From Nostoc sp. DedSLP01 (GTDB lineage: Bacteria; Cyanobacteriota; Cyanobacteriia; Cyanobacteriales; Nostocaceae), in contig JAVRCJ020000004.1 in NCBI GenBank assembly GCA_034530875.2, positions 1-64,000 of the forward strand: a stretch of 64,000 nucleotides of DNA, written 5' to 3'. Position numbers and translations under genes: made by a program. Under the pieces are notes generated by a model. It did no database searches. It had not been told where the DNA came from and saw only the letters and a program-made list of their open reading frames with translations. This document shows positions 6,761-27,538 of this stretch, in pieces. Every line of letters starts with the position of its first letter. Within the stretch, counting starts at the first letter, position 1.

Positions 6761-6774
6761 ATTCTTGAGCGCAG

Positions 6775-9344: not shown

Positions 9345-9353
9345 GTACAGAAT

Positions 9354-10181
9354 ATGACAGATACAAAACAATTAGAATTTTTTGAGGAACCTACGCCGGA
9401 AATCCAAGCTTACATCGAACGTTTGAGCCGCGCTCCTTACTTAGAATTAGAGCAAGTTAAACATTGTCACGCTTGGATGTATGAGTTAGTTATTTCTAGG
9501 ATGACTGGTCTATTGGTAGGAGAATCACGCTCTGGAAAAACAGTAACTTGTAAATCTTTTATAAAGAATTACAACAAATTAAAGCAAGGGCAAGAACAGC
9601 GTATAAAGCCAGTAGTTTATATTCAAATTCCAAGAAATTGTGGTTCCCGAGATTTTTTTATTAAAATTCTTAAAGCTTTAAATAAACCATCGAATGGAAC
9701 AATTTCGGATTTGAGAGAACGGGCACTTGATAGTCTTGAAATACATCAAGTTGAGATGCTAATTATTGATGAAGCAAATCACTTGAAATTTGAAACATTT
9801 TCAGATGTGCGGCATATCTATGATGACGATAATTTAAAAATTTCGGTTCTATTAGTAGGTACTACCAGTCGATTATTGACAGTGGTAAAACGTGATGAAC
9901 AAGTTCTTAATAGGTTTTTAGAACAGTTTCAACTAGATAAATTGGAAGACAAGCAATTTCAGCAAATAATTCAGGTTTGGGAACAAGATGTGCTTAGATT
10001 GCCCGAAGAATCAAAATTGGCAAGTGGAGATAACTTAAAGCTTTTGAAGCAGTCAACCAAAAAATTAATTGGTAGGTTAGATATGATACTTCGTAAAGCT
10101 GCTATTCGTTCATTATTGAGAGGTTATAAAAAAGTAGATCGGGGTGTTTTAAAAGAAATTATTCAAGCAACAAAATTCTAA
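9354..10181 (+). CDS. tnsC: TnsC (TniB) AAA+ ATPase
   Basis: Walker A GESRSGKT, Walker B LIIDEA; directly follows tnsB. Confidence 0.95.
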   Translation: MTDTKQLEFFEEPTPEIQAYIERLSRAPYLELEQVKHCHAWMYELVISRMTGLLVGESRSGKTVTCKSFIKNYNKLKQGQEQRIKPVVYIQIPRNCGSRDFFIKILKALNKPSNGTISDLRERALDSLEIHQVEMLIIDEANHLKFETFSDVRHIYDDDNLKISVLLVGTTSRLLTVVKRDEQVLNRFLEQFQLDKLEDKQFQQIIQVWEQDVLRLPEESKLASGDNLKLLKQSTKKLIGRLDMILRKAAIRSLLRGYKKVDRGVLKEIIQATKF

Positions 10182-10182
10182 A

Positions 10183-10704
10183 ATGGAAGAAAGCATAAAT
10201 GAAAACAGGAAACTTTGGTTAACCAGAGTTAAGCCACTAGAAAGGGAAAGCATCAGTCACTTTTTAGGTAGATTTCGGCGAGAGAAAGGAAATAAATTTT
10301 CTGCCCCTAGTGGATTGGGCGATGTCGCAGGGCTTGGGGTTGTGTTAGCGCGTTGGGAAAAGTTTTACTTCATTCCCTTCCCTGCTCATCAGGAGTTAGA
10401 AGCACTAGCATCTGTAGTACAAGTTGATGTAGATAGATTGCGACAGATGTTGCCACCTCCTGGTGTCAGCATGAAACATAGCCCAATTCGCTTGTGTGGA
10501 GCCTGCTATACTGAGTCACCCTGCCATAAAATCGAGTGGCAGTTTAAAAAGACCGTGGGATGCGATCGCCATCAGCTACGCTTGTTATCAAAATGCCCTG
10601 TCTGCGAAAAGCCATTTCCAGTCCCCGCCTTATGGGTAGATGGAATGTGCAATAGATGTTTTACGCCTTTTGCAGAGATGGCACAATATCAAAAGCATTA
10701 CTAA
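10183..10704 (+). CDS. tniQ: TniQ target-selection protein (short V-K type)
   Basis: ESISHFLGRFRR, RWEKF, RLCGAC..CH..W, C-x2-H..LLSKCPVC zinc-binding motifs. Confidence 0.95.
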   Translation: MEESINENRKLWLTRVKPLERESISHFLGRFRREKGNKFSAPSGLGDVAGLGVVLARWEKFYFIPFPAHQELEALASVVQVDVDRLRQMLPPPGVSMKHSPIRLCGACYTESPCHKIEWQFKKTVGCDRHQLRLLSKCPVCEKPFPVPALWVDGMCNRCFTPFAEMAQYQKHY

Positions 10705-11010
10705 ATAAAAACTTTGGCTTTACAATAATAAGTCAACTTATTTAAAATATTGCGATCGCACGGCTTAGTCCATTTCTACAACAGCACACTTCAACGCCCA
10801 AAGTAGTTAGAATGCGATCGCCTAATTCAAGCGTTGATGCAGCAGTGATGTCATATCCCTAAAATCTATGATTATCAAGCTTAAAAGCAGTAAATATACT
10901 GACTCATAATTAGCTTAGTTTCTCTTATGCTTGTAACAAACAATACCTGGCTATCAAAAGCTGTAGACATTTGTTACCAGAAAAATCTGCCACAAGGGAA
11001 ACACTTCAAC

Positions 11011-14000
11011 ATGGTTGTTCGGCTTGAGAATCTGACAAAAGGCACACAAGTACAAGGGATTTTGCCCAACAATATTGTTACTATCGTTGATGCTCAGTGG
11101 CATGGTTCTGATGTTGTTGAACTTACTTATAAAGATGCTAGTGGCACGCTAGGGCATGAGTTGGTATTTCGAGATAAAGAAACTACCCTGGAAATTATCA
11201 CTTCTGGTGGTGCTTGGAGTTTTACTGCTGATGGTGCTAACTTTCGTCTAGTATCAGAAGCCCACCGTATTCGCCTAGCTTATCTGTTTGACCCTTTACT
11301 AGCTGTTCACACCTCTCTAGTCGAACCGCTACCGCACCAAATTACTGCCGTTTACGGAGAAATGTTGACTCGTCAACCTCTGCGCTTTCTGTTAGCAGAT
11401 GACCCAGGTGCAGGTAAAACTATTATGGCTGGGTTGCTGATTCGAGAATTGCTCATCCGTGGGGATTTGCATCGTTGCCTTGTGGTTTGTCCTGGCAGTT
11501 TAGCTCCACAATGGCAAGATGAATTATCACAAAAGTTTCATTTGCGCTTTGAAATTCTCACTAATGACCGTATTGAATCAGCAGTCAGTGGAAATGCTTT
11601 CGCTGAAATACCATTACTGATTACACGATTAGATCAACTTAGTCGCAACCAAAATTTACAAGCGAAACTGTCGCAGACAGACTGGGATTTAGTTATTTGT
11701 GATGAAGCTCATAAAATGTCAGCTTCATTTTTTGGTGGAGAAATCCAAGAGACAAAGCGGTACAAACTGGGCAAGCTATTATCGAGTTTAACCAGGCACT
11801 TTTTGTTAATGTCAGCAACGCCGCATAACGGTAAAGAAGAAGACTTTCAGTTGTTTATGGCGTTGTTGGATGGTGATAGATTTGAAGGACGTTTCCGCGA
11901 TGGTGTCCACGTTGTAGATACTTCTGACTTGATGCGGCGTTTGGTTAAAGAAGATTTGCTCAAATTTGATGGCAAGCCATTATTTCCAGAACGTCAAGCC
12001 AGCACGATAGAATACGAACTCTCCGATTTAGAAGCGGTACTTTATAAGCGAGTTACTGAGTACGTCCGTGAGGAGTTCAATCGTGCTGATGCTTTAGAAA
12101 ATGAAGGACGCAAAGGTACGGTGGGCTTTGCTTTAACTATTTTGCAACGCCGACTTGCTTCATCCCCAGAAGCTATTTCTCAATCACTGCTACGCCGTCG
12201 AGAAAGGTTGCAAAAACGGTTGCGAGAAGAAGAATCGTTGAAGCGAGGAACTAATGCAACTATTGCATTTAAACAGGTTCTGGATTTAGAAGACATAGAA
12301 GATGATTTAGAAGATATTTCTGTTGAAGAACGAGAAGCAACAGAACAAGAAGTGGTTGATTTAGCTACAGCATCGCGGACGATCGCAGAATTGCAAACAG
12401 AAATTAAGCTTTTACAAGAATTAGAACAACTGGCTTTGCGTGTCCGACGTAGTGGTAAAGATAAAAAATGGGAAGAACTCTCGAATCTGCTACAAAACAA
12501 TGCCGAAATGTTTAATGCTGAGGGACATCGGCGCAAACTAGTGATTTTTACCGAACATCGGGACACATTAAATTATTTGACAGACAGGATTCGGACGCTA
12601 CTGGGACGTAATGAAGCCGTGGTAACGATTCATGGCGCAATGGGACGCGAAGAACGTCGTAAAGCACAGGACGCATTTACCCAAGATATTGAAGTGCAAG
12701 TCTTAATCGCCACTGATGCTGCGGGTGAGGGGATTAACTTGCAAAGGGCGCATCTCATGGTTAATTACGATTTACCTTGGAATCCTAACCGCCTCGAACA
12801 ACGCTTCGGCCGAATTCACCGGATTGGGCAAACAGAGGTTTGCCACTTATGGAATTTAGTTGCTAAAGACACCCGTGAAGGTGATGTGTATTTAGCATTG
12901 TTAAAAAAGGTGGAAGCAGAACGGGAAGCACTGGGGGGTAAAGTATTTGATGTGCTGGGGAAAGCGATCGCAGGCAAGGAACTGAGAGAATTGCTGATAG
13001 AAGCAATTCGTTATGGCGATCGACCAGAGGTACGAGACAAGCTCAACCAAGTTGTCAACGATAAACTTGACCAACAACGACTGCGGGAACTTCTAGAAGA
13101 ACAAGCTTTGGCACATGATGCAATGGATATTGCCAAAGTTCAAAAAATCCGAGAGGAAATGGAAAGGGCAGAGGCAAGGCGGTTGCAACCGCACTTTATA
13201 GCTTCATTCTTCCTAGAAGCATTTGTCCAGCTTGGTGGAACAGTACGTCAGCGAGAACCCCAACGCTATGAAATTACTCACGTTCCATCTGTCATCCGTA
13301 ACCGAGGGCGGCAAATTGGAGTAGGAGAGCCATTACTACAGCGTTACGAACGTATTTGCTTTGAAAAAGATTTGATTAGTATTCCTGGTAAACCTCTAGC
13401 AGCTTTTATCTGTTCCGGTCATCCTTTGTTAGATGTCACAATTGACCTGACTTTGGAACGACATCGAGATTTGTTGAAACAGGGTACTATTTTGGTGGAT
13501 GAGAATGATTCTAGCGAAGAAACCCGCGCCCTAATTTATCTAGAACATTCCATACAAGATGCACGAACCAATATCAATGGTGCTAGGCGTTTAGTCTCAC
13601 GGCGAATGCAATATGTAGAAATTAACCCAGAGGGAAATGCCTACAATGCCGGATACGCACCGTACCTCAATTACCGTCCACTGACGGATGAAGAAAAAGA
13701 TATTTTGGCAGCAGTGTTAGAAGAATCTTGGCTACGAGAAGATTTAGAAGCAAAAGCCAAGACTCACGCGATCGCTCACCTTGTTCCCCAGCATCTTCAA
13801 GAACTCAGGCAGCGCAAAGAAGAACTAATTGCTAAGACGATGACGGCAGTAAAAGATAGATTGACCAAGGAGATCAATTACTGGGATCATCGGGCAGAAG
13901 AATTGAAAATACAAGAAGAAGCTGGTAAACCCAATGCCAAAATTAACTCAGCTAAAGCACGTCAACGAGCAGATGATTTGCAAGGGCGGTTAATGCTGCG

Positions 14001-14538
14001 TTTAGAGGAATTGGAGCAAGAACGTAGATTATCACCATTACCGCCTTTAGTAGTTGGGGGTGCGTTAATAGTATCAATGAGTTTGCTGCAACGACTACAA
14101 GGTAAATCACAACCTGCAAAGGATATGTTTGCCAAGGATACAGAACGGGTAGAAAAGGCTGCAATGGCCGCTGTAATGGACGCAGAACGAACATTAGGTT
14201 ATGAACCAATAGATGTCAGTAACCAAAAGTGTGGTTACGATATTGAATCGCGCATTCCAGAAACAGGACAGTTGCGATTTATTGAAGTTAAAGGGCGAAT
14301 TACAGGGGCTAAAACTGTGACAGTAACGAAAAATGAAATTATTACGGCTCTAAACAAGCCAGACAATTTCATTTTGGCATTGGTACAAGTACCTTTAACA
14401 GCAGGATTGGATAGTAATGATTCTATTCGTTACTTACAGCGTCCGTTCCATAAAGAGCCAGATTTTGCAGTAACAAGTGTTAATTATGATTGGCTGGAGT
14501 TGTGGCAACAAGGAACTGAGCCAGTTTGGATTTTGTAA
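11011..14538 (+). CDS. SNF2-family helicase with C-terminal DUF3883 (PD-(D/E)xK) nuclease
   Basis: LLADDPGAGKT, DEAH, SATP, EQRFGRIHRIGQ; C-terminal GYDIES..FIEVKG; the ATG at 11011 is more likely the start than 10927. Confidence 0.9.
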   Translation: MVVRLENLTKGTQVQGILPNNIVTIVDAQWHGSDVVELTYKDASGTLGHELVFRDKETTLEIITSGGAWSFTADGANFRLVSEAHRIRLAYLFDPLLAVHTSLVEPLPHQITAVYGEMLTRQPLRFLLADDPGAGKTIMAGLLIRELLIRGDLHRCLVVCPGSLAPQWQDELSQKFHLRFEILTNDRIESAVSGNAFAEIPLLITRLDQLSRNQNLQAKLSQTDWDLVICDEAHKMSASFFGGEIQETKRYKLGKLLSSLTRHFLLMSATPHNGKEEDFQLFMALLDGDRFEGRFRDGVHVVDTSDLMRRLVKEDLLKFDGKPLFPERQASTIEYELSDLEAVLYKRVTEYVREEFNRADALENEGRKGTVGFALTILQRRLASSPEAISQSLLRRRERLQKRLREEESLKRGTNATIAFKQVLDLEDIEDDLEDISVEEREATEQEVVDLATASRTIAELQTEIKLLQELEQLALRVRRSGKDKKWEELSNLLQNNAEMFNAEGHRRKLVIFTEHRDTLNYLTDRIRTLLGRNEAVVTIHGAMGREERRKAQDAFTQDIEVQVLIATDAAGEGINLQRAHLMVNYDLPWNPNRLEQRFGRIHRIGQTEVCHLWNLVAKDTREGDVYLALLKKVEAEREALGGKVFDVLGKAIAGKELRELLIEAIRYGDRPEVRDKLNQVVNDKLDQQRLRELLEEQALAHDAMDIAKVQKIREEMERAEARRLQPHFIASFFLEAFVQLGGTVRQREPQRYEITHVPSVIRNRGRQIGVGEPLLQRYERICFEKDLISIPGKPLAAFICSGHPLLDVTIDLTLERHRDLLKQGTILVDENDSSEETRALIYLEHSIQDARTNINGARRLVSRRMQYVEINPEGNAYNAGYAPYLNYRPLTDEEKDILAAVLEESWLREDLEAKAKTHAIAHLVPQHLQELRQRKEELIAKTMTAVKDRLTKEINYWDHRAEELKIQEEAGKPNAKINSAKARQRADDLQGRLMLRLEELEQERRLSPLPPLVVGGALIVSMSLLQRLQGKSQPAKDMFAKDTERVEKAAMAAVMDAERTLGYEPIDVSNQKCGYDIESRIPETGQLRFIEVKGRITGAKTVTVTKNEIITALNKPDNFILALVQVPLTAGLDSNDSIRYLQRPFHKEPDFAVTSVNYDWLELWQQGTEPVWIL

Positions 14539-14609
14539 CTAAAGCTACAGCATTACTTTATTTTTAATAATCTGACATCTAACAATATTGAATTATCGAA
14601 AGGCATTAT

Positions 14610-17600
14610 ATGAGTTCTGGAATACTTAATGAAGTCATTGGTGGGAAATACGATATAAAAGCTCTACTGGGTGAGGGAGGTAGTGGAATTGTATATCTTG
14701 CCAAAAAGCTGAAAACAAATGAACGATATGCAATCAAGACAATTTCTACTGCCGACAAGAATGCTCTAAAACTTTTAGAAAGAGAAACTCAAACTCTAAA
14801 GCGTTTAAATCATCCAAGTATAGTTAAATTTATTGAAGATGGTTATGAAACATCACATAATCTTGTCTATTTGGTTTTGGAGTATTTAGAAGGAGAAAAT
14901 ATTAATAACTATTTTGATAATGGAGTTGATATAAAAACAAAAATAGATTTATTTTTACAAATTCTTGATGCTGTAAGCCATGCTCATGCTAAAGATGTAA
15001 TTCATAGGGATATTAAGCCAGATAATATTATGGTTGTAGAAAACAATGAACAACCATTAGCTAAAATTTTAGATTTTGGTATCTCCATTATTACAACTAC
15101 TATTCTAACTAATACTATAAGAAGCTATCACACACCGTTATTTGCTGCACCCGAACAAATTCTACTAAAAGGTGTATATAGAGATTCTGATATATACTCT
15201 TTAGCGATGACATTTTTATATTTATTATCTACTAATGAAGCTAAAATTGATTTTCGAGATGAGCAAAAAAAAGAAATACTTTATAATTCTGCTCTAGCAA
15301 ACTTGAATATTAATAGTAATCTAAGAGACTCACTAATAGAGGTATTAACAAGAGCAACAGATGAAATTCGGGATAAAAGACCTAAGATTGATGAAATTAG
15401 GGTAGCTCTTAGTAGAATCAAAGATGATATATCTGATAAGTTGACTGTTTTATTTAGCGTAACTCGTAAATTGAAAGATGAAGTATCTAATTCAAATAAA
15501 TATGATGGGCTGTCTTTAAAAGTTAAAAGGCATATAGAATCCAGATTAAAAAATAACTCTAGTTTTATTTATATTATCAAAAGCCGTAAACAAGAACAAC
15601 AAAATAAGTTAACGGTTGAAATTGGTGTAGAATCACAAACTTATACGTATTGGGGTTTTATAAATCTAGACACTCCTAACGAAATTGTCTTATATAAAGA
15701 GAATAACTTTGTTAATCCTCAACAGTCAGAAAGGCTATTTGAAAATGGTGTATTGGTAAAAGTCGATCCAATTGTAGAAGTAGAAGGTACTCCAAGAAGA
15801 AAGAATGACTTAAGTGATTTAGTAAACCAAATTTTACAGAAAGAACAACAAGTTAAAAATGAAATAGAAAGTAACAAAGGAGTAGATAATACATTTAGCC
15901 GATGGCAAAGTGTTATTGAAATAGAAGAAAAGATAATTAGTGAAAGGAAACAGAGTTTTGCTTATTCCAAAGTTGAATATGATAGAGATAATCAACGATT
16001 AATTGTCACTTTAAGCAATCCTATATCTCTAGATGAATTTGAGCAAATTACATCACCACCACTACCTGTAACTATCTCAGTCAAGAGACAATCACCTCCG
16101 TATCGTGAAAGTCAGTTTTCTGTAGGAGACATAATAGACGGAGATAAATCCAAAAATGGAGAAATGGTTGTAACATTACATATCAGCATCGGAGATTTTT
16201 GTAATCCTGATGTATTTGAATCTCTTTTAGAAAAAGGAAGAATAGAACGTGATTTTAAAGCACAGGAATCGGAAATAGGACGCAGAAGAAAAGCACTAAG
16301 GGCAATTAGATATGGTGATTCGGAAAATACTACTTTATGCAAAGTTATATCCGATCCAGCTAACTCATTACCTGTAGAACCCCTAGTTATCAATCAATTT
16401 TTTAATCAACAACTTGATAGCTCACAACAGCAATCTGTATGTAAAGCCTTAGCAACTGAGGATATATTTTTAATCCAAGGGCCTCCAGGAACTGGGAAAA
16501 CTTCAGTAATTACAGAAATAGTATTACAAATATTACGTAGATACCCAAATGATAAAATTTTGATTTCTTCTCAATCCAATATTGCTGTAGATAATGTCTT
16601 AACTAGGCTCTCTACTATCAAGCTTGATTCTATAGATATTAAGGTTTTAAGGATTGGTAGAGAAGAGAAGATTGAAGATGAAGCTAGACAATTTGAAATA
16701 GAAAGAGCAATTATTAATTGGCAGGAATCAATTAGAACAAAATCATTGGCTCATTGGCAACAATATGAAAACCAGAATCTAGAACTGCTTTTGGGTGTAA
16801 AGAAAATTGCAGATATTGAATCTTTGAAAACTCTGCTTGAGCAAGTTAAGCATTTAACAGAACAGATTACCGAAGCAATAAAAGGTTTTAATTCAGAGTT
16901 AGTTATCTCTTCCCTAAATACCTCTTCGCAACAGGCCGCTGATTTAGCTTGCGAGTTAATATATGAAAAGCTATTATTAGAAGAAAAAATCTTAGGAAGA
17001 ATTAAAGATTATGTAGAAAACTTTGGCATAGAGTATCCAGAGAAAAAGTTACTATCTTATTGGATAGATGAAGAGTATAGACGATTGCAGGCTGTTCTAG
17101 GCGATAATAATGAACACTACAAAAACTTTTTTAACTTAAGAAAGTTAAAGGAAGAATGGAATGAAAGGCTAAAACGAAAACAAATAGATTTAGTATCAAT
17201 ATTTTTAGATGGTGTCAATGTAGTTGGTGCTACCTGCTTAGGTATTGCTAATCTTAAAGATTTGAAATTTGATTGGGTGATTGTTGACGAGGCTGGTCGT
17301 TCTACTGCTCCAGAAACTTTTGTACCAATGGCGAGGGGTAAGAAAATAATATTGGTCGGCGACCACAAACAGTTACCACCAATCATTGATAGAGATTTAC
17401 AAAACCGGGTACTTAGTGAGAAAGATATTGAAAAACGCGCCCTGGAAGTCAGCCTTTTTGAATATCTATATGAAGAATTACCAAAGACAAAGAAAATCAC
17501 ACTCAACCATCAGTATAGGATGCACCCCGATATTGGGAATCTAGTTAGTACATTATTTTATGATAAGCAGGTTAAAAGTGAGCGTGTTGATCCAAATACC

Positions 17601-18167
17601 AAGCAACATCAGTTGAGTCAATTTAATAAAAGCGTCTACTGGATATCAACAAGCGATGTCAGCATCGAAAAATCAAAAGAAAGAAAAAGTGTAAATAGTT
17701 ACAGCAATAGTTATAATGCCAATCTCATCAAGGCTATTTTGAGTAACATTCAGCAGAATTGTCAGTCTAGCAATTTGCACAAAGAAGTTGGTGTCATAGC
17801 GGGCTATGCTTCACAAATAAGTACATTAGAAGCAACAGTTGCACCTCAAAATAAAAGTTTGTGGAAAAATATTCATATAGCCATGCACACAGTTGATGCC
17901 TTTCAAGGAAGAGAATGCGACATCATTATTTACGATCTAGTCAGAAGTAATCAACAAAAGCAACTTGGATTTACCTCCGATGACAGACGCTTGAATGTAG
18001 CTTTGTCTCGTGCTAAACAGTTATTAATTATAGTGGGCAATGATGTGATGGCTTATGAAGGTAGAAGTCCAAACAGGCTTCCTAACCCTTTCAAACCATT
18101 AATTGAATATATTGAGAGTAACCCAAGAGCTTGTGAAAGATTAGCATCTAGCCAATTTGTAATTTAA
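14610..18167 (+). CDS. Ser/Thr protein kinase fused to a Upf1/DNA2-like superfamily 1 helicase
   Basis: GEGGSGIVY, AIK, HRDIKPDN, DFG, APE; helicase motifs QGPPGTGKT, SNIAVDN, DEAG, VGDHKQLPP, QYRMHP, TVDAFQGRE, RLNVALSRAK. Confidence 0.92.
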   Translation: MSSGILNEVIGGKYDIKALLGEGGSGIVYLAKKLKTNERYAIKTISTADKNALKLLERETQTLKRLNHPSIVKFIEDGYETSHNLVYLVLEYLEGENINNYFDNGVDIKTKIDLFLQILDAVSHAHAKDVIHRDIKPDNIMVVENNEQPLAKILDFGISIITTTILTNTIRSYHTPLFAAPEQILLKGVYRDSDIYSLAMTFLYLLSTNEAKIDFRDEQKKEILYNSALANLNINSNLRDSLIEVLTRATDEIRDKRPKIDEIRVALSRIKDDISDKLTVLFSVTRKLKDEVSNSNKYDGLSLKVKRHIESRLKNNSSFIYIIKSRKQEQQNKLTVEIGVESQTYTYWGFINLDTPNEIVLYKENNFVNPQQSERLFENGVLVKVDPIVEVEGTPRRKNDLSDLVNQILQKEQQVKNEIESNKGVDNTFSRWQSVIEIEEKIISERKQSFAYSKVEYDRDNQRLIVTLSNPISLDEFEQITSPPLPVTISVKRQSPPYRESQFSVGDIIDGDKSKNGEMVVTLHISIGDFCNPDVFESLLEKGRIERDFKAQESEIGRRRKALRAIRYGDSENTTLCKVISDPANSLPVEPLVINQFFNQQLDSSQQQSVCKALATEDIFLIQGPPGTGKTSVITEIVLQILRRYPNDKILISSQSNIAVDNVLTRLSTIKLDSIDIKVLRIGREEKIEDEARQFEIERAIINWQESIRTKSLAHWQQYENQNLELLLGVKKIADIESLKTLLEQVKHLTEQITEAIKGFNSELVISSLNTSSQQAADLACELIYEKLLLEEKILGRIKDYVENFGIEYPEKKLLSYWIDEEYRRLQAVLGDNNEHYKNFFNLRKLKEEWNERLKRKQIDLVSIFLDGVNVVGATCLGIANLKDLKFDWVIVDEAGRSTAPETFVPMARGKKIILVGDHKQLPPIIDRDLQNRVLSEKDIEKRALEVSLFEYLYEELPKTKKITLNHQYRMHPDIGNLVSTLFYDKQVKSERVDPNTKQHQLSQFNKSVYWISTSDVSIEKSKERKSVNSYSNSYNANLIKAILSNIQQNCQSSNLHKEVGVIAGYASQISTLEATVAPQNKSLWKNIHIAMHTVDAFQGRECDIIIYDLVRSNQQKQLGFTSDDRRLNVALSRAKQLLIIVGNDVMAYEGRSPNRLPNPFKPLIEYIESNPRACERLASSQFVI

Positions 18168-18183
18168 TATATCTACCTACACA

Positions 18184-19620
18184 ATGTCTGATTTAACTAT
18201 CGATTTTCAAAACAAAATAAGAAAATATCACTCACTGCCTGAAGCTGTAGTGATTGATTACAAAAAAATTGGGTATCCTTTTTATATGGTTATACTTGAT
18301 TTGACGTACTTATCTAATAGAAATTTAGAACTTCAAGAAGAGTTTGTTATTAAATGTATTACAAACGGGTTATTAAGCCAAAATAAAATATCTAGTTTTC
18401 TGGGAGTAGATGACCATTTTGTTGAGAAAGTTTTATCGGGTTTAATCTCAAAAAACCTTGTTATAAAAGAAGAAAATTTCAAAGCAACCGAGATAGCACT
18501 AGATGCTCTTGAAAGACAGACTGTCTTAGATACAGTATCTGAGACAAAAACATTTTATATAGATGCTTTAAATGGCAAGCTATATGATTACTTTCAAGTC
18601 AAAAGAGTAGGCAATAATGATGCGTACTTATTAAAGGCAGAAGTTCCTAAACCAAGGAAAGGTAAAGTAGAGGATGTTATTGATTACTATGAAGAAATTG
18701 AAAAAGCTTTAGGGACATTAAGTCGGCAAAATCAAGTTGAACTAATACAAGTCAATAATATTGAAAAAGTTTATCCACAGTGGCATGAAGTTATGTTAGT
18801 TTTTTATAAAAATCATCCAGATGACACTGAAGTAGGATATGAAACTTTTTCAAGAGATTCTATTCAATTAGACTATAGAAAAACTATAGAACAACTATAT
18901 AATCAAGGGAAAAAGGTACTTAATGATATACTTTACCTTGATATAAGTAATAATGAAGAGAAAGCTGAAATAGAAAAATCAAATAATGAAGTTATTAAAG
19001 GTATTTTTAAAGATGATATTCAAGCCGTCGAACGACTCACTATAAAAATTAATGCTCTTAATGAAACTGATTCATTTACAGATAATCAAATTCATTCAAT
19101 TAATGAGCAAAGAAAAACCCTGAGTCAACAACTTAAGGAAATAAAAACTCAAAGTAAGATTTCGGAGATAATTCACACTTCAGAGCATCGTAACTATCTG
19201 TTCAAAGCTTTACAAGAAGCTAAAAATCGAATAATGATAATCTCTCCTTGGATACGCAGCAATGTGGTTGATATTAATTTTCTAGCGAAATTAGAAGATA
19301 CATTAATCAGGAAATGTCAAGTCTATATTTTGTATGGAATCAAGCAAAAAAGTGGTTGGGGTCAACAAAACGACCAATTTGCTATTAAACAATTAGAAGA
19401 TTTAGCTAGCAAATATAAAAATTTTCAGTTTGATAAAGTAAAAAATACTCACCGTAAGATTATTGTATGTGATGATAAGTTTGGCATAGTGACAAGCTTT
19501 AATTTTTTATCATTTAGAGCTGACCCCAGCCTAACTTATAGGGATGAATTAGGTGTTATTCTCAGAGACAAAGAAACTATTGACAGTCTGTTTCAAAGTG
19601 GGCTTTCACTGTTATCTTAG
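18184..19620 (+). CDS. Protein with N-terminal wHTH-like region and C-terminal PLD (HKD) nuclease-like domain
   Basis: ISPWI, HRKIIVCD (HxKxxxxD), TSFNFLS, ELG; SQNKISSFLGVDDHFVEKVLSGL resembles a wHTH; starts 16 bp after the kinase-helicase gene. Confidence 0.8.
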   Translation: MSDLTIDFQNKIRKYHSLPEAVVIDYKKIGYPFYMVILDLTYLSNRNLELQEEFVIKCITNGLLSQNKISSFLGVDDHFVEKVLSGLISKNLVIKEENFKATEIALDALERQTVLDTVSETKTFYIDALNGKLYDYFQVKRVGNNDAYLLKAEVPKPRKGKVEDVIDYYEEIEKALGTLSRQNQVELIQVNNIEKVYPQWHEVMLVFYKNHPDDTEVGYETFSRDSIQLDYRKTIEQLYNQGKKVLNDILYLDISNNEEKAEIEKSNNEVIKGIFKDDIQAVERLTIKINALNETDSFTDNQIHSINEQRKTLSQQLKEIKTQSKISEIIHTSEHRNYLFKALQEAKNRIMIISPWIRSNVVDINFLAKLEDTLIRKCQVYILYGIKQKSGWGQQNDQFAIKQLEDLASKYKNFQFDKVKNTHRKIIVCDDKFGIVTSFNFLSFRADPSLTYRDELGVILRDKETIDSLFQSGLSLLS

Positions 19621-19674
19621 AATGTCTGAGAATTTATACAACTGGTTTTGTATGCACTGAATTTAGCCAGTATA

Positions 19675-20334
19675 CTACTTTTCATCGCTAACTATATACA
19701 TAAACTTTTTTCCAAAGTTACTGATATATATGTTTTCAGAGTTCATATCATTGTGTCTTGGTTTTCCTTGTAGAGTATTTGCATAACATAACTCTCTAGC
19801 TACCAAGTTAAATAAACTATCAATTATCATGTCCTCTGTAACCTCTATTCCTCTTTGTTGAAGTGCTATTTTTAATTCAGTGTTGGTTAATCTATTAGCT
19901 TTCTGGCGGTAATCAGAGATAATTTCTAAAACATTTGCATCTACGCCATCTAATAATTTTAAAGTTTCTATATATATAGGATGAATTGAATTACCTAAAA
20001 TAGCTGATTCCAGTAAATTTATCCATTTTTCTCTGATTAGCTCATTTTTATGTCCGATATATACTCCCTCCAAAATTGGCTGGAGTATTTCAGGGTCAAT
20101 GTCTTGAACATCTTCTTCAATTTTTATACCTTTCGCTTTTAATCTTTCATAAATTTTCTCAACTGCACTACCTAAGTTTCTTAACTTTCTTTTTGATACG
20201 TTTCCAAGCTCCTCTATCTGTTCTCCAAACAATCCTTTCACTAAAAGTGTAATGCCTGCCTTAGTTACGTCATTTGTGAGTTCTGTAATTACGCTCAGTA
20301 TATCCATGCTTTTCTTTCTGCTTACTATACTCAA
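19675..20334 (-). CDS. Abi-alpha / DUF4393-like protein (start may be 20307)
   Basis: PEILQPILE..ELIREKWINLL..IHPIYIETLKLLDGVDA pattern plus C-terminal wHTH-like NLVARELC..ISNFGKKF. Confidence 0.65.
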   Translation of the reverse strand: MSIVSRKKSMDILSVITELTNDVTKAGITLLVKGLFGEQIEELGNVSKRKLRNLGSAVEKIYERLKAKGIKIEEDVQDIDPEILQPILEGVYIGHKNELIREKWINLLESAILGNSIHPIYIETLKLLDGVDANVLEIISDYRQKANRLTNTELKIALQQRGIEVTEDMIIDSLFNLVARELCYANTLQGKPRHNDMNSENIYISNFGKKFMYIVSDEK

Positions 20335-20696
20335 ATAGGATTTCTATGAGTTTAATTTAATACATCTGTTCTATTTACTCCACTTGACTGTGCCAGTTGC
20401 CTAAGTCCTGACTGATTATTTTGCGGTGCGATCGCAATTATCAACAGATTCGTCAGGTAAGGACATTCCCTAGATTTTCCAGCCCAAGAGAAATTACTGA
20501 GGTCATCAAATAGCTGTACAACTAAAATTACCAGATGAAGCTCTGTAATTTTAGTTAAGCTAGCAGCAATCAACAAAGACTAATTAGCCTCCCAATGCTT
20601 GATGCAAATATTCCGTAAGTCTACTGGCACGGAATATTTTGTGTTGCTTCTTGCTGAGACTTGCGGGCTTCAATATATACTAGCCTGGCAAAATGA

Positions 20697-23498
20697 ATGT
20701 ACCGCAAGAAGCTAATCGAAGTCGCATTACCACTGGAAGTAATTAACAAATTATCTGCTGAAGAAAAAGCTGTGCCTCGCCGTGGGCATCCCCAAACAAT
20801 ACATCTCTGGTTTGCAAGACGACCTTTAGCAGCTTGTCGAGCAGTGATTTTTGCTTCATTAGTAGATGACCCATCTAGTGATCTCGAAAATTTTCCAACC
20901 GAAGAAGAACAAGCCAAAGAGCGTCAGCGGCTTTTCAATATTATTGAGCAACTTGTGAAATGGGAAAATAGCAACAACCCAAGTATATTAGAAGAAGCAC
21001 GGACAGAAATTCTGAAATCCACCAATGGAAATCCACCGCCTGTACTTGATCCCTTTTGCGGTGGTGGTTCTATACCTTTAGAAGCTCAACGGTTAGGGCT
21101 AGAAGCTTATGCCAGTGATCTTAATCCAGTACCTGTTCTGATCAATAAAGCACTAATCGAAATTCCTCCCAAATTTGCAGGTAGACCACCCGTGAATCCA
21201 GAAGCACGGCAAAAAACAGACTATAGCCGAACTTGGTGTGGTGTGAAAGGACTAGCAGAAGATGTGCGTTACTACGGTCAATGGATTCGAGATGAAGCAG
21301 AAAAACGTATTGGTCATCTTTACCCAAAAGTAAAACTTCCGAAAGAACATGGCGGAGGAGAAGCGAAAGTATTAGCTTGGTTCTGGGCAAAAACTGTCAA
21401 ATGTCCAAACCCCGCCTGTAATGCAGTAATTCCCTTAGCTCGTTCATTTACAGTCTCAGTTAAAAAGAAAGAAAAAACTTGGGCTGAACCAATAATAGAT
21501 CATAGCCAAAAGCATCCAATAATACGTTTTCAGATTCAGACAGGTGATAAAAACCCACCAGATGGAACAGTGAATCGTCGAGGCACTATCTGTATTTGTT
21601 GTAGTACTCCAATACCTCTTGACTATCTGCGAACAGAAGGGATAGCAAGCAGGATAAAAAAACAAATGACAGCAATTGTTGCTGAAGGACACAGAGGGCG
21701 AGTATATTTGTCACCTGATGAGGAACAAGAAAAAATAGCAAATCAAGCTAAACCAAAGTGGATACCAGATAGAGTACTTTCGACGCATTCCCAGTACATG
21801 GCTGCACCACGCTATGGTATGACCAAACACTCTGACCTATTCACACCAAGACAACTTGTGCTTCTGACGACAATCAGCGATTTAATAAGTGAAGTTCGCC
21901 AGCAAGTATTACAAGATGCGATAACAACAGGGTCATTTGATGAAGGTATTTCTTTAAGTAATGGTGGAACTGGAGTAAAAGCTTACGCAGAAGCAGTCAC
22001 AGTTTACCTTAGTTGTGCAATAAGTCGCCTTGCAGATTATAACAACACTATTTGTTCATGGAATATCAAAGGTGGAAGTGTTGGTCATTTATTCACTAGA
22101 CAAGCAATACCAATGTCATGGGATTTCATTGAAGTCAACCCTTTAGAAAAGATGAGTGGTAATTGGCTTGGTGGAATTGAATGGATAAGTGATGTTCTTG
22201 AAAATCTTGTTGCCACAAAAAGTTGTTCCGTAATTCAGCAAGATGCAGTAGTGCTTGAAACAAAGGTGAGGCCTTGTATTAGCACCGATCCTCCCTACTA
22301 TGACAATGTACCATATGCTGATTTATCTGATTTCTTTTATATTTGGTTGCAACCTTCGTTAAACGAAATTTATCCTGATTTATTTAGAGCGTCACTCACT
22401 CCGAAAATACAAGAACTGGTGGCAGATCAATTTCGTTTTGGTAGCCGTGAAAAAGCTCGGCAAGTCTTTGAAGACAGGTTAAGCAAAGCTTTTTATCGTA
22501 TGCGTGAAGTAGCGAATTATGATTATCCACTGACAATCTTTTACGCTTTTAAACAGTCAGAAATTGAAGAAGATGATGGTAAGAGTAGCCATAACACTGT
22601 AGTAGCATCTACTGGCTGGGAAACGATGCTTGAAGGTTTACTAAAAGCAAACTTCGTTATTCAAGGAACTTGGCCAATGCGAACAGAACGTAATGCGCGA
22701 ACTCGTGGTATCGGCAGCAATGCTTTAGCCTCATCGATTGTCCTCGTCTGTCGCCCTCGCCCAGAAACCGCCCCATCTAGTACTCGTCGCCAATTTGTCA
22801 ATTATCTCAAACGTGAACTCCCCGACGCACTGCAAAAACTCCAACAAGGCAACATTGCCCCTGTAGACTTGGCACAAGCCAGCATCGGCCCTGGTATGGC
22901 GATTTACTCCCGCTACAGCAAAATCTTAGAAGCAGACGGCACGCCAATGTCAGTCCGCACCGCTCTACAACTAATTAACCAAACCTTAGACGAATTTTTC
23001 GCCGAACAAGAAGGAGAATTTGACGCTGAAACCCGCTTTGCCCTGATTTGGTTTGAACAGCACGCATTTAATGAAGGTTTATTTGGCGAAGCGGAAACCC
23101 TTTCCAAAGCTAAGAATACGGCAGTACAAGGCATGGTAGACGCTGGCATTCTCATAGCCAAGGCGGGTAAAGTACGACTGCTACGCCGCAACGAATTACC
23201 TAAAAACTGGAATCCCCAAACTGATAACCGCCTTCCTGTCTGGGAAGCGACACAGCACATGATTCGAGAATTACAAGATGGTGCTGGAAATCAAGGTGCT
23301 GCGAATTTGCTCTGTCAACTGGGAACAATAGGAGAAGCAGCAAGGGAATTAGCTTATCGGCTGTATAACATTTGCGACAGAAAAGGCTGGGCTGCTGAAG
23401 GTGTCGCTTATAACAGCTTGGTAATCTCCTGGCCAGAAATTTCTCGCCTCGCTGCCCAAACCCAAGAAACAACTCCCGTACAAATGGCTTTACTTTAA
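20697..23498 (+). CDS. DUF1156 adenine-specific DNA methyltransferase
   Basis: KKLIEVALPL, HLWFARRPLAACRA, motif I DPFCGGGSIPLEA, motif IV TDPPYYD, CPNPAC zinc ribbon. Confidence 0.92.
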   Translation: MYRKKLIEVALPLEVINKLSAEEKAVPRRGHPQTIHLWFARRPLAACRAVIFASLVDDPSSDLENFPTEEEQAKERQRLFNIIEQLVKWENSNNPSILEEARTEILKSTNGNPPPVLDPFCGGGSIPLEAQRLGLEAYASDLNPVPVLINKALIEIPPKFAGRPPVNPEARQKTDYSRTWCGVKGLAEDVRYYGQWIRDEAEKRIGHLYPKVKLPKEHGGGEAKVLAWFWAKTVKCPNPACNAVIPLARSFTVSVKKKEKTWAEPIIDHSQKHPIIRFQIQTGDKNPPDGTVNRRGTICICCSTPIPLDYLRTEGIASRIKKQMTAIVAEGHRGRVYLSPDEEQEKIANQAKPKWIPDRVLSTHSQYMAAPRYGMTKHSDLFTPRQLVLLTTISDLISEVRQQVLQDAITTGSFDEGISLSNGGTGVKAYAEAVTVYLSCAISRLADYNNTICSWNIKGGSVGHLFTRQAIPMSWDFIEVNPLEKMSGNWLGGIEWISDVLENLVATKSCSVIQQDAVVLETKVRPCISTDPPYYDNVPYADLSDFFYIWLQPSLNEIYPDLFRASLTPKIQELVADQFRFGSREKARQVFEDRLSKAFYRMREVANYDYPLTIFYAFKQSEIEEDDGKSSHNTVVASTGWETMLEGLLKANFVIQGTWPMRTERNARTRGIGSNALASSIVLVCRPRPETAPSSTRRQFVNYLKRELPDALQKLQQGNIAPVDLAQASIGPGMAIYSRYSKILEADGTPMSVRTALQLINQTLDEFFAEQEGEFDAETRFALIWFEQHAFNEGLFGEAETLSKAKNTAVQGMVDAGILIAKAGKVRLLRRNELPKNWNPQTDNRLPVWEATQHMIRELQDGAGNQGAANLLCQLGTIGEAARELAYRLYNICDRKGWAAEGVAYNSLVISWPEISRLAAQTQETTPVQMALL

Positions 23499-23613: not shown

Positions 23614-26600
23614 ATGTCAATTAGTAACCGCGAAAGAGTTGGCAGGGCGTTAGAACTTTTGAGAGATGGCTTATATCCCTTTGTAGAACGTGAGATGCGT
23701 TCGGTTTTTGGTGATAAATGGCTAGTTGCCGCTACATCTTTTGTTCCAGAAGACCATACCCTACGGCGTACTGTTCAACAAATTCTCAAGCAGGATGAAT
23801 CAGCCATCCTGAAGCTCATGTCTGGTCAATGGCGTGATGTCTTTAAAAAGACACTGGGAAATGCAGAAAGAAGCTTAGTTGGAGAACTCATTGACACTCG
23901 CAACTCTTGGGCGCATAACAAACCATTTTCTACAGATGATGCCTATCGCGCTCTTGATAGTGTTTCACGGTTACTTTCATCCATCTCTGCACCAGAAGCA
24001 GACGAAGTTGACAAGCAAAAACAAGAACTTTTACGAGTACGCTTTACAGAACAAGCCCGTCGGGAAACTCGCCGCGCTACTCTCCAACCTGTAGAAGGCA
24101 ATCCTACAGGGGGTTTAAAACCCTGGCGAGAAATTGTCACACCACACCCAGATGTTGCCAGTGGTCGCTATCAAGAAGCAGAATTTGCTGCTGACCTCTG
24201 GCAAGTTTATTTAGATGAAGGTTCTGATGAATACCGTATACCTACAGAGTTTTTTAGCCGTACTTTCCTCACTGAAGGGTTGAAACAACTGCTGACAAAT
24301 GCCTTAGTGCGTCTTGCTGGGAATGGAGGCGACCCTGTTATCGAACTGCAAACTAACTTTGGTGGCGGCAAAACTCACGCGATGCTGGCACTATACCATC
24401 TATTTATGGGAGTCCCAGTATCCAAATTACCAGGATTGGAGCCTGTACTAGCAGCAGCGAATGTTTCACCACCTGCAAAAGTAAATACAGCTGTACTCGT
24501 AGGCAATAAAATTTCTCCTGGTGAGGCTCAAACTAAAAAAGATGGCACTGTTATTCGCACACTTTGGGGCGAACTAGCTTGGCAATTGGGTGGTAGAGAA
24601 GCTTACGAAATGGTTCGTCAAGCAGATGAAACCTCAACTAACCCAGGCGATAACTTACGATTGTTATTTAACCGTTATGCACCCTGTTTGATTCTCATTG
24701 ATGAATGGGTGGCTTACGCCCGACAACTACACGAAATTAATGATCTACCAGGGGGGAGTTTTGACACTCACTTTACCTTTGCTCAAACTTTGAGCGAGTC
24801 AGCCAAAAATGCTAAACAAACTCTGTTGGTTGTAAGTATTCCGGCATCAGATAATGAAATTGGTGGCGATCGCGGTAAAGCAGCCTTAAGTAGACTCAAA
24901 AATGCTATCGGTAGAGTCGAATCTCCTTGGCGACCAGCAAGTGCCGATGAAAGTTTTGAAATTGTGCGGCGACGCTTGTTCCAACCCATCATCGAAGAAA
25001 GTGGCTTTGTTGCCCGTGATGCGGTCATCCGTGCTTTTGGGGAGATGTACCAAAACCAATCTCAAGAATTTCCCAGCGAGTGTCGAGAAGCCAGTTACAA
25101 GCGACGGCTAGAAAATGCCTACCCCATTCATCCAGAACTTTTTGACCGACTTTATAATGACTGGTCAACTCTCGACAAATTCCAACGCACACGGGGTGTG
25201 CTGAGATTAATGGCCAAAGTGATTCACTCCTTATGGGAAGGTCAGGACAAGAGCTTGTTAATCATGCCTGCCAGCGTGCCAATGGATGACGGACAGGTAC
25301 AAACAGAATTAACTCGCTACCTCGAAGATCACTGGGTGCCAGTAATTGAAAAAGATGTCGATGGTGATAATTCTCTACCTTTAGCGTGCGATCGCCAAAA
25401 CCCGAATTTAGGACGTTACTCTGCCTGTCGCCGCGTTGCCCGAACCATTTACCTTGGTTCCGCCCCCACTCTCAGGGCAGCTAATCGGGGTGTAGAAGAC
25501 AATCGAATTAAGTTGGGATGTGTCCAGCCTGGAGAAAGTGTAGCTACCTTTGGAGACGCACTGCGCCGACTTACTGACCAAGCCACTCACCTTTATATTG
25601 ATAACACTCGCTACTGGTTCTCAACTCAACCCAGTGTCACCAGACTTGCCCAAGACCGAGCCGAGCAAATCCAACAGGATCAGGATAAAGTTTGGGATGA
25701 AATCATTCGCAGACTGAGGGCTGACAAGCAAAGAGGAGAGTTTACGGCAGTGCATATTGCTCCTGATTCTTCTGCCGATGTGCCTGATGAAATGAATGCG
25801 AGGTTAGTTGTCTTAGGGCCACAGCATCCTCATAAAAATAAGGAAAGTAATACCCCAGCCCTAACCAGAGGAAACGAAATACTTCACAACAAGGGGGCCA
25901 GTCCACGGTACTGCAAAAATATGTTGTTATTTTTAGCAGCAGATAAAGCCAAACTGGAGCTATTAGAGCAATCTGTTTGTCAGTACTTAGCTTGGAATTC
26001 AATTGTCAGCGATAAAGAAGCTTTGAACTTAGATGTTTTTCAAAGCAATCAGGCAACAACTAAGCAACAGCAAACAGATAAAGATGTCAAAAGTTTAATC
26101 CAAGAAGCTTACATCTGGCTCATCGTGCCAAGTCAACCCGACCCTCAAGGGGAAATTGAATGGCAGGAAATCAGGTTACAAAAACAAGACTCTCCAATTC
26201 TACAAGCCAGCCGCAAAGCAGTACACGAAGAACACTTGATACCTAATTATGCTGCTAGTCGCCTACGCTTGGAAGCCCTTGATCCTTACCTTTGGCGAGA
26301 TGTAAATCACCTTGACCTCAAGAAATTGTGGGAGTACCTTGCTTATTACTTGTACTTACCACGCCTCAAAAATCAACAGGTATTATTACAAGCGATCGCA
26401 GAAGGTGTAGCATCCTTACTATTAAATGACAACTTTGCTTACGCCACAGGCTACGATGAATCAAAAGGACGTTATCTGGGTTTGAAAGCAGCTGAACATA
26501 TTACTGTAGCTCTTAGCAGCCAAAATTTAATAGTTAAACCAGAAGTAGCGCAACATCAGCTTGAGGAAGATGCTGCTAAACCTGTAACTCCACTAGTAGT

Positions 26601-26937
26601 TAAAGAACGAACAGGAAGCTATAAGACTGAAAAGGAAAAAACTATTGACACTGTAGTAACACCAGATGACTCGTCTAATGGCAAAGTAACTGTCATAGTT
26701 CCACCAAAACGTTTCTATGGTTCAGTCAAATTGGATGCATTGCGATTACGACGTGACGTAGGACAAATAGCAGACGAGGTTATTCAACACCTTAGTAGTT
26801 TGGTGGGTGCTGAAGTAGAAATTACTTTGGAACTTCAAGTCACTGTTCCAGAAGGTGTACCAGAGAATGTGATTCGCACAGTCAGCGAAAACTGTCGGGT
26901 TCTCAAATTTAGTAATCAGGAATTTGAACAAGAATGA
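23614..26937 (+). CDS. Swt1-type HEPN domain fused to DUF499 AAA+ ATPase
   Basis: HEPN RxxxxH motif RNSWAH; LKPWREIVTPH, EFAADL, Walker A QTNFGGGKTH, LILIDE, YPIHPE, FQRTRGVLRL. Confidence 0.9.
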   Translation: MSISNRERVGRALELLRDGLYPFVEREMRSVFGDKWLVAATSFVPEDHTLRRTVQQILKQDESAILKLMSGQWRDVFKKTLGNAERSLVGELIDTRNSWAHNKPFSTDDAYRALDSVSRLLSSISAPEADEVDKQKQELLRVRFTEQARRETRRATLQPVEGNPTGGLKPWREIVTPHPDVASGRYQEAEFAADLWQVYLDEGSDEYRIPTEFFSRTFLTEGLKQLLTNALVRLAGNGGDPVIELQTNFGGGKTHAMLALYHLFMGVPVSKLPGLEPVLAAANVSPPAKVNTAVLVGNKISPGEAQTKKDGTVIRTLWGELAWQLGGREAYEMVRQADETSTNPGDNLRLLFNRYAPCLILIDEWVAYARQLHEINDLPGGSFDTHFTFAQTLSESAKNAKQTLLVVSIPASDNEIGGDRGKAALSRLKNAIGRVESPWRPASADESFEIVRRRLFQPIIEESGFVARDAVIRAFGEMYQNQSQEFPSECREASYKRRLENAYPIHPELFDRLYNDWSTLDKFQRTRGVLRLMAKVIHSLWEGQDKSLLIMPASVPMDDGQVQTELTRYLEDHWVPVIEKDVDGDNSLPLACDRQNPNLGRYSACRRVARTIYLGSAPTLRAANRGVEDNRIKLGCVQPGESVATFGDALRRLTDQATHLYIDNTRYWFSTQPSVTRLAQDRAEQIQQDQDKVWDEIIRRLRADKQRGEFTAVHIAPDSSADVPDEMNARLVVLGPQHPHKNKESNTPALTRGNEILHNKGASPRYCKNMLLFLAADKAKLELLEQSVCQYLAWNSIVSDKEALNLDVFQSNQATTKQQQTDKDVKSLIQEAYIWLIVPSQPDPQGEIEWQEIRLQKQDSPILQASRKAVHEEHLIPNYAASRLRLEALDPYLWRDVNHLDLKKLWEYLAYYLYLPRLKNQQVLLQAIAEGVASLLLNDNFAYATGYDESKGRYLGLKAAEHITVALSSQNLIVKPEVAQHQLEEDAAKPVTPLVVKERTGSYKTEKEKTIDTVVTPDDSSNGKVTVIVPPKRFYGSVKLDALRLRRDVGQIADEVIQHLSSLVGAEVEITLELQVTVPEGVPENVIRTVSENCRVLKFSNQEFEQE

Positions 26938-27280: not shown

Positions 27281-27538
27281 TCAGGCTGCTAATTTTCCCA
27301 AGTATTCATTCTGGAGTACAGCAACCTGTTGCTTTAAGGTCTCTAAGTCCGCTTGCATTTTGGCTAAATCTGGAGTTCCTTGGGATTCTTCAGCCAGGTA
27401 AGAACGAATCCAACCCATGATTAATTCTGAGGCTGTCTTTCCCTCAGTTTTAACTTTGTCCATAAAAGCTTCTTTAGTCTCATCGTCCATTCTGACAATG
27501 ATTTGATTACTCAGCTTTGTTGTTTGTCGTTTTACCAT
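27281..27538 (-). CDS. Ribbon-helix-helix (CopG/Arc-like) small regulator with coiled-coil tail
   Basis: QIIVRMDDETKEAFMDKVKTEGKTASELIMGWIRSYL fits a beta-alpha-alpha RHH pattern. Confidence 0.7.
   Translation of the reverse strand: MVKRQTTKLSNQIIVRMDDETKEAFMDKVKTEGKTASELIMGWIRSYLAEESQGTPDLAKMQADLETLKQQVAVLQNEYLGKLAA

Follow-up and report, generated by a model that had tools for sequence, protein, structure and literature searches.

Type I Mokosh is a defence system of two genes, one coding for a COG1112/Upf1-like RNA helicase with a serine/threonine kinase (STK) domain and the other for a separate phospholipase D (PLD) nuclease; in the sections of the defining preprint on which we draw, defence by the E. 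coli system is lost upon mutation of the helicase ATP site or the PLD active site (Millman et al., bioRxiv 10.1101/2022.05.11.491447). Here we analyse the first 64,000 nucleotides of contig JAVRCJ020000004.1 of the cyanobacterium Nostoc sp. DedSLP01 (the window), in which two adjacent genes, mkoA and mkoB, very probably form an ordinary type I Mokosh that lies, with a separate Abi_alpha gene, inside a slot of an Hma defence operon, on a type V-K CRISPR-associated transposon (CAST) beside a tRNA-Thr gene. A first-pass annotation of this DNA, made from the sequence alone, had recognised a two-gene helicase/kinase and PLD-nuclease defence module, in agreement with type I Mokosh. It had also proposed that this was a candidate new anti-phage system without a named match, which does not hold: because the pair matches the PADLOC MkoA and MkoB models and fits the published type I definition, it already has a name. 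In type II Mokosh, the helicase and PLD domains common to MkoAB are found in one polypeptide, MkoC, which lacks the kinase and the N-terminal half of MkoB with its winged helix-turn-helix (wHTH) and beta-structure; E. coli YjhR is an example. Type II Mokosh is described as monomeric and active against one single-stranded DNA phage only, in the part of a biochemical survey cited here (10.1101/2025.07.10.664194).

The two genes and their domains are the following, all on the plus strand:
14610-18167, mkoA, 1185 amino acids (PADLOC MkoA, Pfam, PDB-chain matches, family conservation)
14649-15398, Hanks Ser/Thr kinase domain, MkoA residues 14-263 (Pfam Pkinase, E 2.6e-40)
MkoA residues 319-547 (approximate), middle region with two beta-barrels and a long helix (structure model, pLDDT 86.8)
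16410-18041, Upf1-like superfamily 1B (SF1B) helicase, MkoA residues 601-1144 (Pfam AAA_11, E 5.5e-54; AAA_12, E 3.2e-51)
18184-19620, mkoB, 478 amino acids (PADLOC MkoB, PLDc_2, AlphaFold2 model, Foldseek)
18331-18486, wHTH, MkoB residues 50-101 (AlphaFold2 model, Foldseek, family profile)
MkoB residues 257-324, coiled coil (AlphaFold2 model)
19159-19617, single-HKD PLD nuclease domain, MkoB residues 326-478 (PLDc_2, E 7.4e-10)
19450-19473, HKD motif H423-x-K425-x4-D430, in single copy in the PLDc_2 domain

The mkoA open reading frame (ORF) has the coordinates and length given in the first-pass annotation, as checked against the ORF list. PADLOC model PDLC03920 (MkoA) matches the protein with an E-value of 3.7e-215, residues 9-1176 aligning to positions 6-1106 of the 1112 in the model. 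The catalytic set of the kinase is intact, comprising Lys43, His132-Arg133-Asp134, Asn139 and Asp155-Phe156-Gly157. The kinase domain also matches the PADLOC models of the stand-alone kinases PD-T4-6, Stk2 and mad6 (E 1e-23 to 1e-50); unlike MkoA, these have neither a superfamily 1 helicase fusion nor a PLD partner. The helicase motifs are complete, with the Walker A sequence GPPGTGKT (Lys630), Walker B residues Asp893-Glu894 and motifs III-VI, and the nearest solved chains are those of Upf1/Nam7 (E 2.7e-41), IGHMBP2, DNA2 (E 1.8e-28), Sen1 and ZNFX1. Residues 887-1154 also match positions 671-955 of the PADLOC MkoC model. Structural matches to the middle region are weak (template modelling scores 0.2-0.5) and include eIF5B domains, ribosomal L35Ae-type barrels, Upf1, SETX and Sen1; reading it as Upf1-type accessory barrels with a stalk helix is not established.

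The mkoB gene starts after a spacer of 16 nt, and its product matches PADLOC model PDLC03922 (MkoB) with an E-value of 4.9e-63. An AlphaFold2 model calculated with 16 homologues in the alignment (pLDDT 80.6) contains a wHTH of three helices and two strands (helices 50-60, 66-73 and 77-89; strands 93-95 and 99-101). A Foldseek search with this model has the wHTH/coiled-coil protein TrmBL2 among its matches, and a profile of 25 MkoB family members matches the MarR-type protein ZitR over positions 47-119 (E 1.9e-4), so that model, fold search and profile agree with the wHTH-like N-terminus seen on first inspection. For the PLD domain, Foldseek retrieves the nucleases Nuc (1byr, target-normalised template modelling score (TMt) 0.70), NucT and mouse Zucchini (4ggj, TMt 0.53); by fold match, MkoB would thus be a nuclease of the dimeric Nuc/Zucchini kind, as had been suggested from its single HxKxxxxD motif. 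The PLD end of the protein (residues 307-465) also matches the C-terminus of the PADLOC MkoC model, at positions 965-1124. Our ORF, Pfam and PDB-chain results equally bear out the three ORFs (the third being the Abi_alpha gene), the 16-bp gap, the intact Hanks kinase and the Upf1/DNA2-like helicase.

Relatives of MkoB were collected by scanning one genome per species, which gave 191 proteins, and 80 loci were kept. Their hosts are Cyanobacteria, Beta- and Gammaproteobacteria, Actinobacteria, Planctomycetota and others. The synteny count was made on the 69 loci with at least 3.6 kb of upstream sequence; 11 loci with shorter upstream sequence were excluded, seven of which show a partial partner. 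Directly upstream of the MkoB relative, on the same strand, there is a helicase in 64 of the 69 loci and a kinase plus helicase in 60, so the co-occurrence of homologues proposed as a check is borne out. Fifty intact full-length MkoA ORFs were recovered (1133-1229 amino acids), with a called MkoB beside 48 of them; mkoA stop and mkoB start are at most 30 nt apart in 40 of these 48 pairs, distances that rest on longest-ORF start calls. The kinase residues Lys43, His132, Arg133, Asp134, Lys136, Asn139, Asp155 and Phe156 are invariant in 51 of 51 MkoA sequences, and so are the helicase residues tested (Walker A and B, motifs III, V and VI), with motif IV alternating between Tyr and His; median identity to the Nostoc MkoA in this set is 26% for the kinase and 31% for the helicase. 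In MkoB, His423, Lys425, Asp430, Ser438 and Asn440 are invariant in 25 of 25 sequences. Since the catalytic residues of the kinase are invariant across the MkoA family, its activity, and not only its fold, is likely to be needed for type I Mokosh function.

The features that define type I Mokosh are all found in the sequence: an Upf1-like helicase, a fused STK, an adjacent PLD gene and conserved neighbours. Compared with described type I systems, the Nostoc pair is alike in the STK-helicase fusion, the separate PLD gene, the PADLOC models matched, the catalytic motifs, the gene order and the tight spacing. It differs in belonging to a cyanobacterial clade that is only about 25-30% identical to enterobacterial, beta-proteobacterial and actinobacterial pairs, in being AT-rich and free of highly iterated palindrome 1 (HIP1) sites, and in being nested in Hma on a CAST.

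The pair behaves as a unit in comparisons of DNA sequence:
14560-19621 (left border approximate), plus strand, mobile mkoAB cassette of about 5.06 kb, 93-94% identical in DNA to copies in another context
The closest copies, in G412 and L001, match only 14563-19621 in DNA search and alignment, and the L001 alignment stops 1 nt past the mkoB stop codon. Matches in public contigs of the sequencing runs X5, X6 and X10 are bounded by 14558 or 14563 and by 19621, with other flanks that are common to all three. Because copies elsewhere share only the cassette and their flanks differ, mkoAB is, by sequence comparison, a self-contained unit some 5.06 kb long that is present in at least two contexts. 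No terminal repeats were seen at its borders by eye, where no dedicated repeat search was run. A 17.8-kb contig of run X4, about 95% alike, covers 13500-20905 unbroken, so a second strain keeps the order hmaA-mkoA-mkoB-abi-hmaB. Among 150 other genomes sampled from the family, six (G412, G149, G439, G476, G284 and G423) contain most of the pair with a DNA identity of at least 68%; fragments of mkoAB also occur in G450.

The closest copy elsewhere (L001, contig C112 of G412, run X6) has an internal deletion of 701 nt, corresponding to window positions 17707-18409; as the last part of mkoA and the first part of mkoB are lost with it, that copy is decayed. A 5,741-nt contig from the RNA library X10, about 93% alike, spans the whole mkoAB of a relative, which, being an RNA-library contig, does not prove transcription. 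No RNA run contains the locus of this organism itself; four metatranscriptome runs contain a small share, and gaps in the coverage by X5, X6 and X10 do not show that a part is absent.

The cassette lies between the first two genes of an operon of three:
10927-14538, plus strand, hmaA, SNF2 helicase with NOV_C (PADLOC HmaA, E 0, 1716 bits)
20697-23498, plus strand, hmaB, DUF1156 N6-adenine methylase (PADLOC HmaB, E 0; Pfam DUF1156)
23614-26937, plus strand, hmaC, HEPN_Swt1 and DUF499 ATPase (PADLOC HmaC, E 0, residues 168-1105; Pfam)
This "DUF499 operon" is, from its sequence, an Hma system, with HmaA, HmaB and HmaC encoded in order on one strand as in 13 cyanobacterial Hma loci. At the junction (14527-14538), the hmaA stop codon, TAG or TAA in relatives, is TGG here, and the ORF is three codons longer, running to a new TAA. 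HmaC also has a Swt1-like HEPN domain at residues 11-125 (23614-23990; E 1.5e-40), outside the PADLOC HmaC match; cyanobacterial HmaC relatives appear to have it as well, because their alignments start at residue 1.

HmaB relatives occur in 71 of 401 genomes sampled from the taxonomic order, and 20 of these stretches were fetched; in 13 of the 20, hmaA and hmaB are on one strand and 0.56-4.2 kb apart. The slot contents of the 13 loci are AriA/AriB-like genes, pairs of ABC-ATPases, PIN, Uma2, PD-(D/E)XK, DUF29, a methylase and DUF4365. Neither Mokosh nor Abi-alpha was found in these slots, nor were CAST genes found near the Hma loci of the 20 cyanobacterial stretches; Hma is thus not regularly CAST cargo. 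In a fourteenth locus, L096 (G198; 5079-6302 and 6562-12712), the slot contains TnpB/IS605 OrfB, and hmaA is fragmented, with duplicated fragments upstream. A DNA search of 151 genomes of the family also located the two flanks of the slot, the end of hmaA and the beginning of hmaB, at the following distances from each other:
348 bp in G444 (spacer 353 nt, with no ORF of 40 amino acids or more on that strand)
about 370 bp in G404
1.1 kb in G443
1.4 kb in G379, of the same genus
6.2 kb in this window
The foreign genes are located between hma genes: judged by sequence, the block fills a variable hmaA-hmaB slot, which has a length of about 350 nt and no insert in two relatives, while in further relatives it is occupied by different defence genes.

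Embedded genes have been described in 62.7% of 1,485 Hma systems, 96.7% of them sharing the orientation of the host system, for which co-regulation was proposed (Payne et al., bioRxiv 10.1101/2024.01.29.577857, in the sections used here); the word Mokosh is absent from the main text of that preprint as available to us. The Nostoc locus is like those systems (Payne et al. 2021 and the 2024 preprint) in its HmaA-HmaB-HmaC order and in having foreign genes in between on the same strand; it is unlike them in that the abi gene is on the opposite strand and a CAST carries the entire Hma locus. Compared with L085, L086 and L102, HmaB is 60-64% identical in amino-acid sequence, against 82-87% for HmaA and 88-93% for HmaC, and the match to the X4 contig ends at 20905, about 200 nt inside hmaB. 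From these comparisons it seems that the methylase, alone or together with the slot, is a hypervariable module of Hma that can be exchanged.

Between mkoB and hmaB lies the third gene of the block:
19675-20334, minus strand, Abi_alpha gene, 219 amino acids from a TTG start with an ATG nine codons in; convergent with mkoB
20444-20415, minus strand, promoter-like site of the Abi_alpha gene (consensus match only)
Its identification as an Abi-alpha-like gene is secure at the Pfam level (PF14337, E 8.5e-13, 49.2 bits with a cut-off of 29), and there is a weak match to PADLOC PDC-S47 (E 6.5e-6). The first-pass annotation had included it in the module. None of the 80 MkoB loci, however, has an Abi_alpha gene beside MkoB, and the DNA ceases to resemble that of the closest cassettes 1 nt past the mkoB stop codon. 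Homologues with 56-58% amino-acid identity are free-standing in G460 and G510, where their neighbours are an integrase and KfrA gene or ThiF and JAB genes. Given its absence from the MkoB loci and the free-standing homologues, we regard the Abi_alpha gene, from the sequence comparisons, as a separate insertion, independent of Mokosh.

The composition of the block is exceptional for this genome. Between 14539 and 20696 the guanine-plus-cytosine (GC) fraction is 0.322, compared with 0.409 for the genome; out of 7,973 equally long windows taken across the genome, only 0.03% reach a value this low. The 64-kb window contains 50 HIP1 sites, yet the 6.65 kb from 13776 to 20427 have none, and a HIP1-free stretch this long is seen in only 0.15% of genome windows. 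These counts bear out the AT-rich, HIP1-free block described earlier in contrast to the SNF2 and DUF499 genes, which have two (hmaA) and three (hmaC) sites; hmaB, not mentioned then, also has none. In 11 of 11 cyanobacterial mkoAB loci (L002, L003, L006-L009, L013, L015, L016, L020 and L024), comparing the mkoAB ORFs with their flanks, the pair has a GC fraction of 0.28-0.34 and 0-2 HIP1 sites, and the flanks, of 5-12 kb, have 0.35-0.46 and 3-25 sites. All 11 being AT-rich, the cyanobacterial mkoAB clade has kept its low GC over time, which is then not just the mark of one recent transfer. On a reading that we hold unlikely, such persistent AT-richness would come from constant lateral flow as a discrete cassette, by a route that needs no transposase, or from selection that keeps expression low. 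Horizontal acquisition, as first proposed, is supported by the outlying composition and by the occurrence of the cassette in other contexts.

The carrier of the Hma locus is delimited by the following features:
6551-6672, minus strand, left-end TnsB-binding-type repeats, two copies, inverted (motif search)
7605-10704, plus strand, tnsB, tnsC and tniQ (PADLOC TnsB_V-K, E 6e-198; TnsC_V-K, E 1.6e-67; TniQ_V-K, E 4.4e-82)
28526-30451, plus strand, cas12k (PADLOC Cas12k, E about 1e-275)
30903-31164, plus strand, short CRISPR array of four repeats with a spacing of 71-74 (repeat search, family D1)
31540-31635, plus strand, right-end TnsB-binding-type repeats, four copies (repeat and motif search)
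31697-31770, minus strand, tRNA-Thr (TGT), adjoining the right end (ARAGORN and Rfam, 77 bits)
A motif resembling the TnsB site has six matches in the window where 0.16 are expected, only at the two ends. The window thus contains the tnsB, tnsC, tniQ and cas12k genes, a short array, repeats at both ends and an adjacent tRNA gene, and the positions of the terminal repeats, array and tRNA-Thr gene delimit, at the level of sequence, a type V-K CAST of about 6550-31635, with Hma and its insertions as cargo; the tRNA-Thr gene is likely to be the attachment site. The location of the pair in a DUF499 defence operon carried by a CAST had been noted before and is specified here as Hma in a V-K CAST. 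Tn7-like elements are described as carrying defence-rich cargo, with 78 V-K elements in Cyanobacteria, in the part of Benler et al. cited here (PMC8649781).

Two small ORFs lie between hmaC and cas12k on the minus strand, at 27281-27538 (85 amino acids) and 28158-28406 (82 amino acids). The latter immediately precedes cas12k, in opposite orientation, at the place where V-K CASTs are reported to carry a repressor gene. Just beyond the left end, 254-5629 codes for a 1791-residue protein with Ser/Thr kinase, AAA_16 ATPase, GAF and HisKA/HATPase_c domains (Pfam). Outside the CAST on the right, past a UDP-GlcNAc 2-epimerase gene, an AAA_35 ATPase gene (33705-34919, minus strand) has weak matches to PADLOC mad8 and PDC-S01.

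Several points weigh against reading the pair as an ordinary type I Mokosh. The match to the PADLOC MkoB model extends, in its best stretch, over no more than positions 3-380 of 610; nine of the 69 loci lack a full upstream partner, in most cases because the gene is disrupted or the match is partial or confined to the PLD domain; no kinase mutant appears in the cited sections of Millman et al. (10.1101/2022.05.11.491447); purification of type I Mokosh failed in the biochemical survey, according to the part of it used here (10.1101/2025.07.10.664194); and our literature search found no experimental work on a Mokosh system of cyanobacteria, this locus included. The partial MkoB coverage, together with an identity of only 24-31% between the cyanobacterial clade and proteobacterial and actinobacterial pairs, would favour a new, unnamed kinase-helicase/PLD system distinct from Mokosh. 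However, four distant MkoB proteins from other phyla cover the model equally partially, so that the gap is a property of the model, and the pairs they belong to match both PADLOC models as well as the Nostoc pair does and over equal parts of each model. The full-length MkoA match and the architecture, gene order and motifs are also those of published type I systems; because of this family match we consider a new system already refuted, with a very slight probability left to it. A housekeeping role, with an Upf1-like quality-control helicase and a kinase serving RNA surveillance or signalling rather than defence, has in its favour the homology of the helicase to Upf1 and Sen1 and the roughly 90 kinase-domain matches to MkoA in the genome. 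Yet mkoA is present there in single copy, with foreign composition, in a cassette mobile between contexts, within a defence operon on a transposon; its E. coli homologues defend, and its presence in only six of the 150 other family genomes sampled speaks against a conserved core gene. In the flanks of ten related mkoAB loci, 13 of 94 ORFs, in eight of the loci, match PADLOC models at E of 1e-10 or better, one of these matches being TnpB-like, to Cas12f models; as no background rate was computed, this defence context is only suggestive. We give the housekeeping role a next to negligible probability.

With type I Mokosh as the preferred identity of the pair, its relation to its neighbours can be weighed. 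The Abi_alpha gene is 54 nt from the mkoB stop codon, in the same AT-rich, HIP1-free block, and the arrangement is kept in the X4 strain; it could on that account be a third component, an effector triggered or controlled by MkoAB. Its absence beside MkoB in all 80 loci, the end of cassette similarity before it, its stand-alone homologues and its position on the opposite strand with a promoter-like site of its own argue against this, and we think it highly improbable. A coupling of Mokosh to Hma, by which the hma promoter would also drive mkoAB, in one regulatory unit, and Mokosh would stop phages that get past Hma, is better placed, if still doubtful: the genes share a strand, the hmaA stop and mkoA start are 71 nt apart with no promoter-like or terminator-like site called in between, the second strain keeps the arrangement, and co-orientation is the rule for genes embedded in Hma, with co-regulation proposed in the sections cited above (10.1101/2024.01.29.577857). 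On the other hand, none of the 80 MkoB loci has Hma apart from one weak helicase-domain match, none of the 20 cyanobacterial Hma stretches has Mokosh, and the RNA runs searched gave no transcripts of this organism's locus. The promoter scan was not above chance (22 promoter-like sites with 27.9 expected, three terminator-like sites with 3.0 expected) and gives no usable operon evidence. That the nesting is functional as a whole, with Mokosh and Abi-alpha transcribed with Hma and this layered defence moved by an RNA-guided transposon as one 25-kb package, is in our view unlikely.

For this locus, a likely mechanism can be proposed from the domains present. The Upf1-like helicase of MkoA, driven by ATP, would load on phage-derived single-stranded RNA or on a replication or transcription intermediate, after which the PLD nuclease of MkoB would cut nucleic acid. 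If it works like Nuc and Zucchini, MkoB would have to dimerise so that two HKD motifs form one active site, with the wHTH and coiled coil assisting in binding and dimerisation. The kinase may phosphorylate a target, which could be MkoA itself, MkoB or a protein of the phage or host; that it switches the nuclease, as first proposed, is speculation. A complex prediction for MkoA 601-1185 with MkoB 225-478 gave a score of 0.00 and, run without controls, provides no answer, neither for nor against binding. MkoA and MkoB have been linked to MOV10L1 and PLD6 in the part of Cury et al. cited here (10.1101/2022.12.12.520048). MOV10L1 and Zucchini (PLD6), of the animal PIWI-interacting RNA pathway, are alike in combining an Upf1-like helicase with a single-HKD PLD nuclease; unlike Mokosh, they are eukaryotic, membrane-anchored, without kinase or wHTH, and produce small RNAs, for which there is no evidence in Mokosh. 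As for the history of the locus, the 5.06-kb mkoAB cassette and, separately, the Abi_alpha gene would have been inserted between hmaA and hmaB, with the resulting Hma locus carried by the CAST.

What is new here is only the genomic context and the cyanobacterial clade, Mokosh itself being already named; the false lead of a new defence system is thereby removed, and useful by-products are the exact borders of the cassette, the invariance of the kinase site across the family and the lasting AT-richness of the cyanobacterial cassettes. Our literature search turned up no paper devoted to the mechanism of type I Mokosh, for which the compact, intact cyanobacterial pair is possibly a useful extra candidate for study. 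The invariance of the kinase site suggests that type I Mokosh relies on its kinase activity. The locus offers a clean natural case in which mobility and immunity are nested in three layers: Mokosh and Abi-alpha in Hma, and Hma in a V-K CAST.

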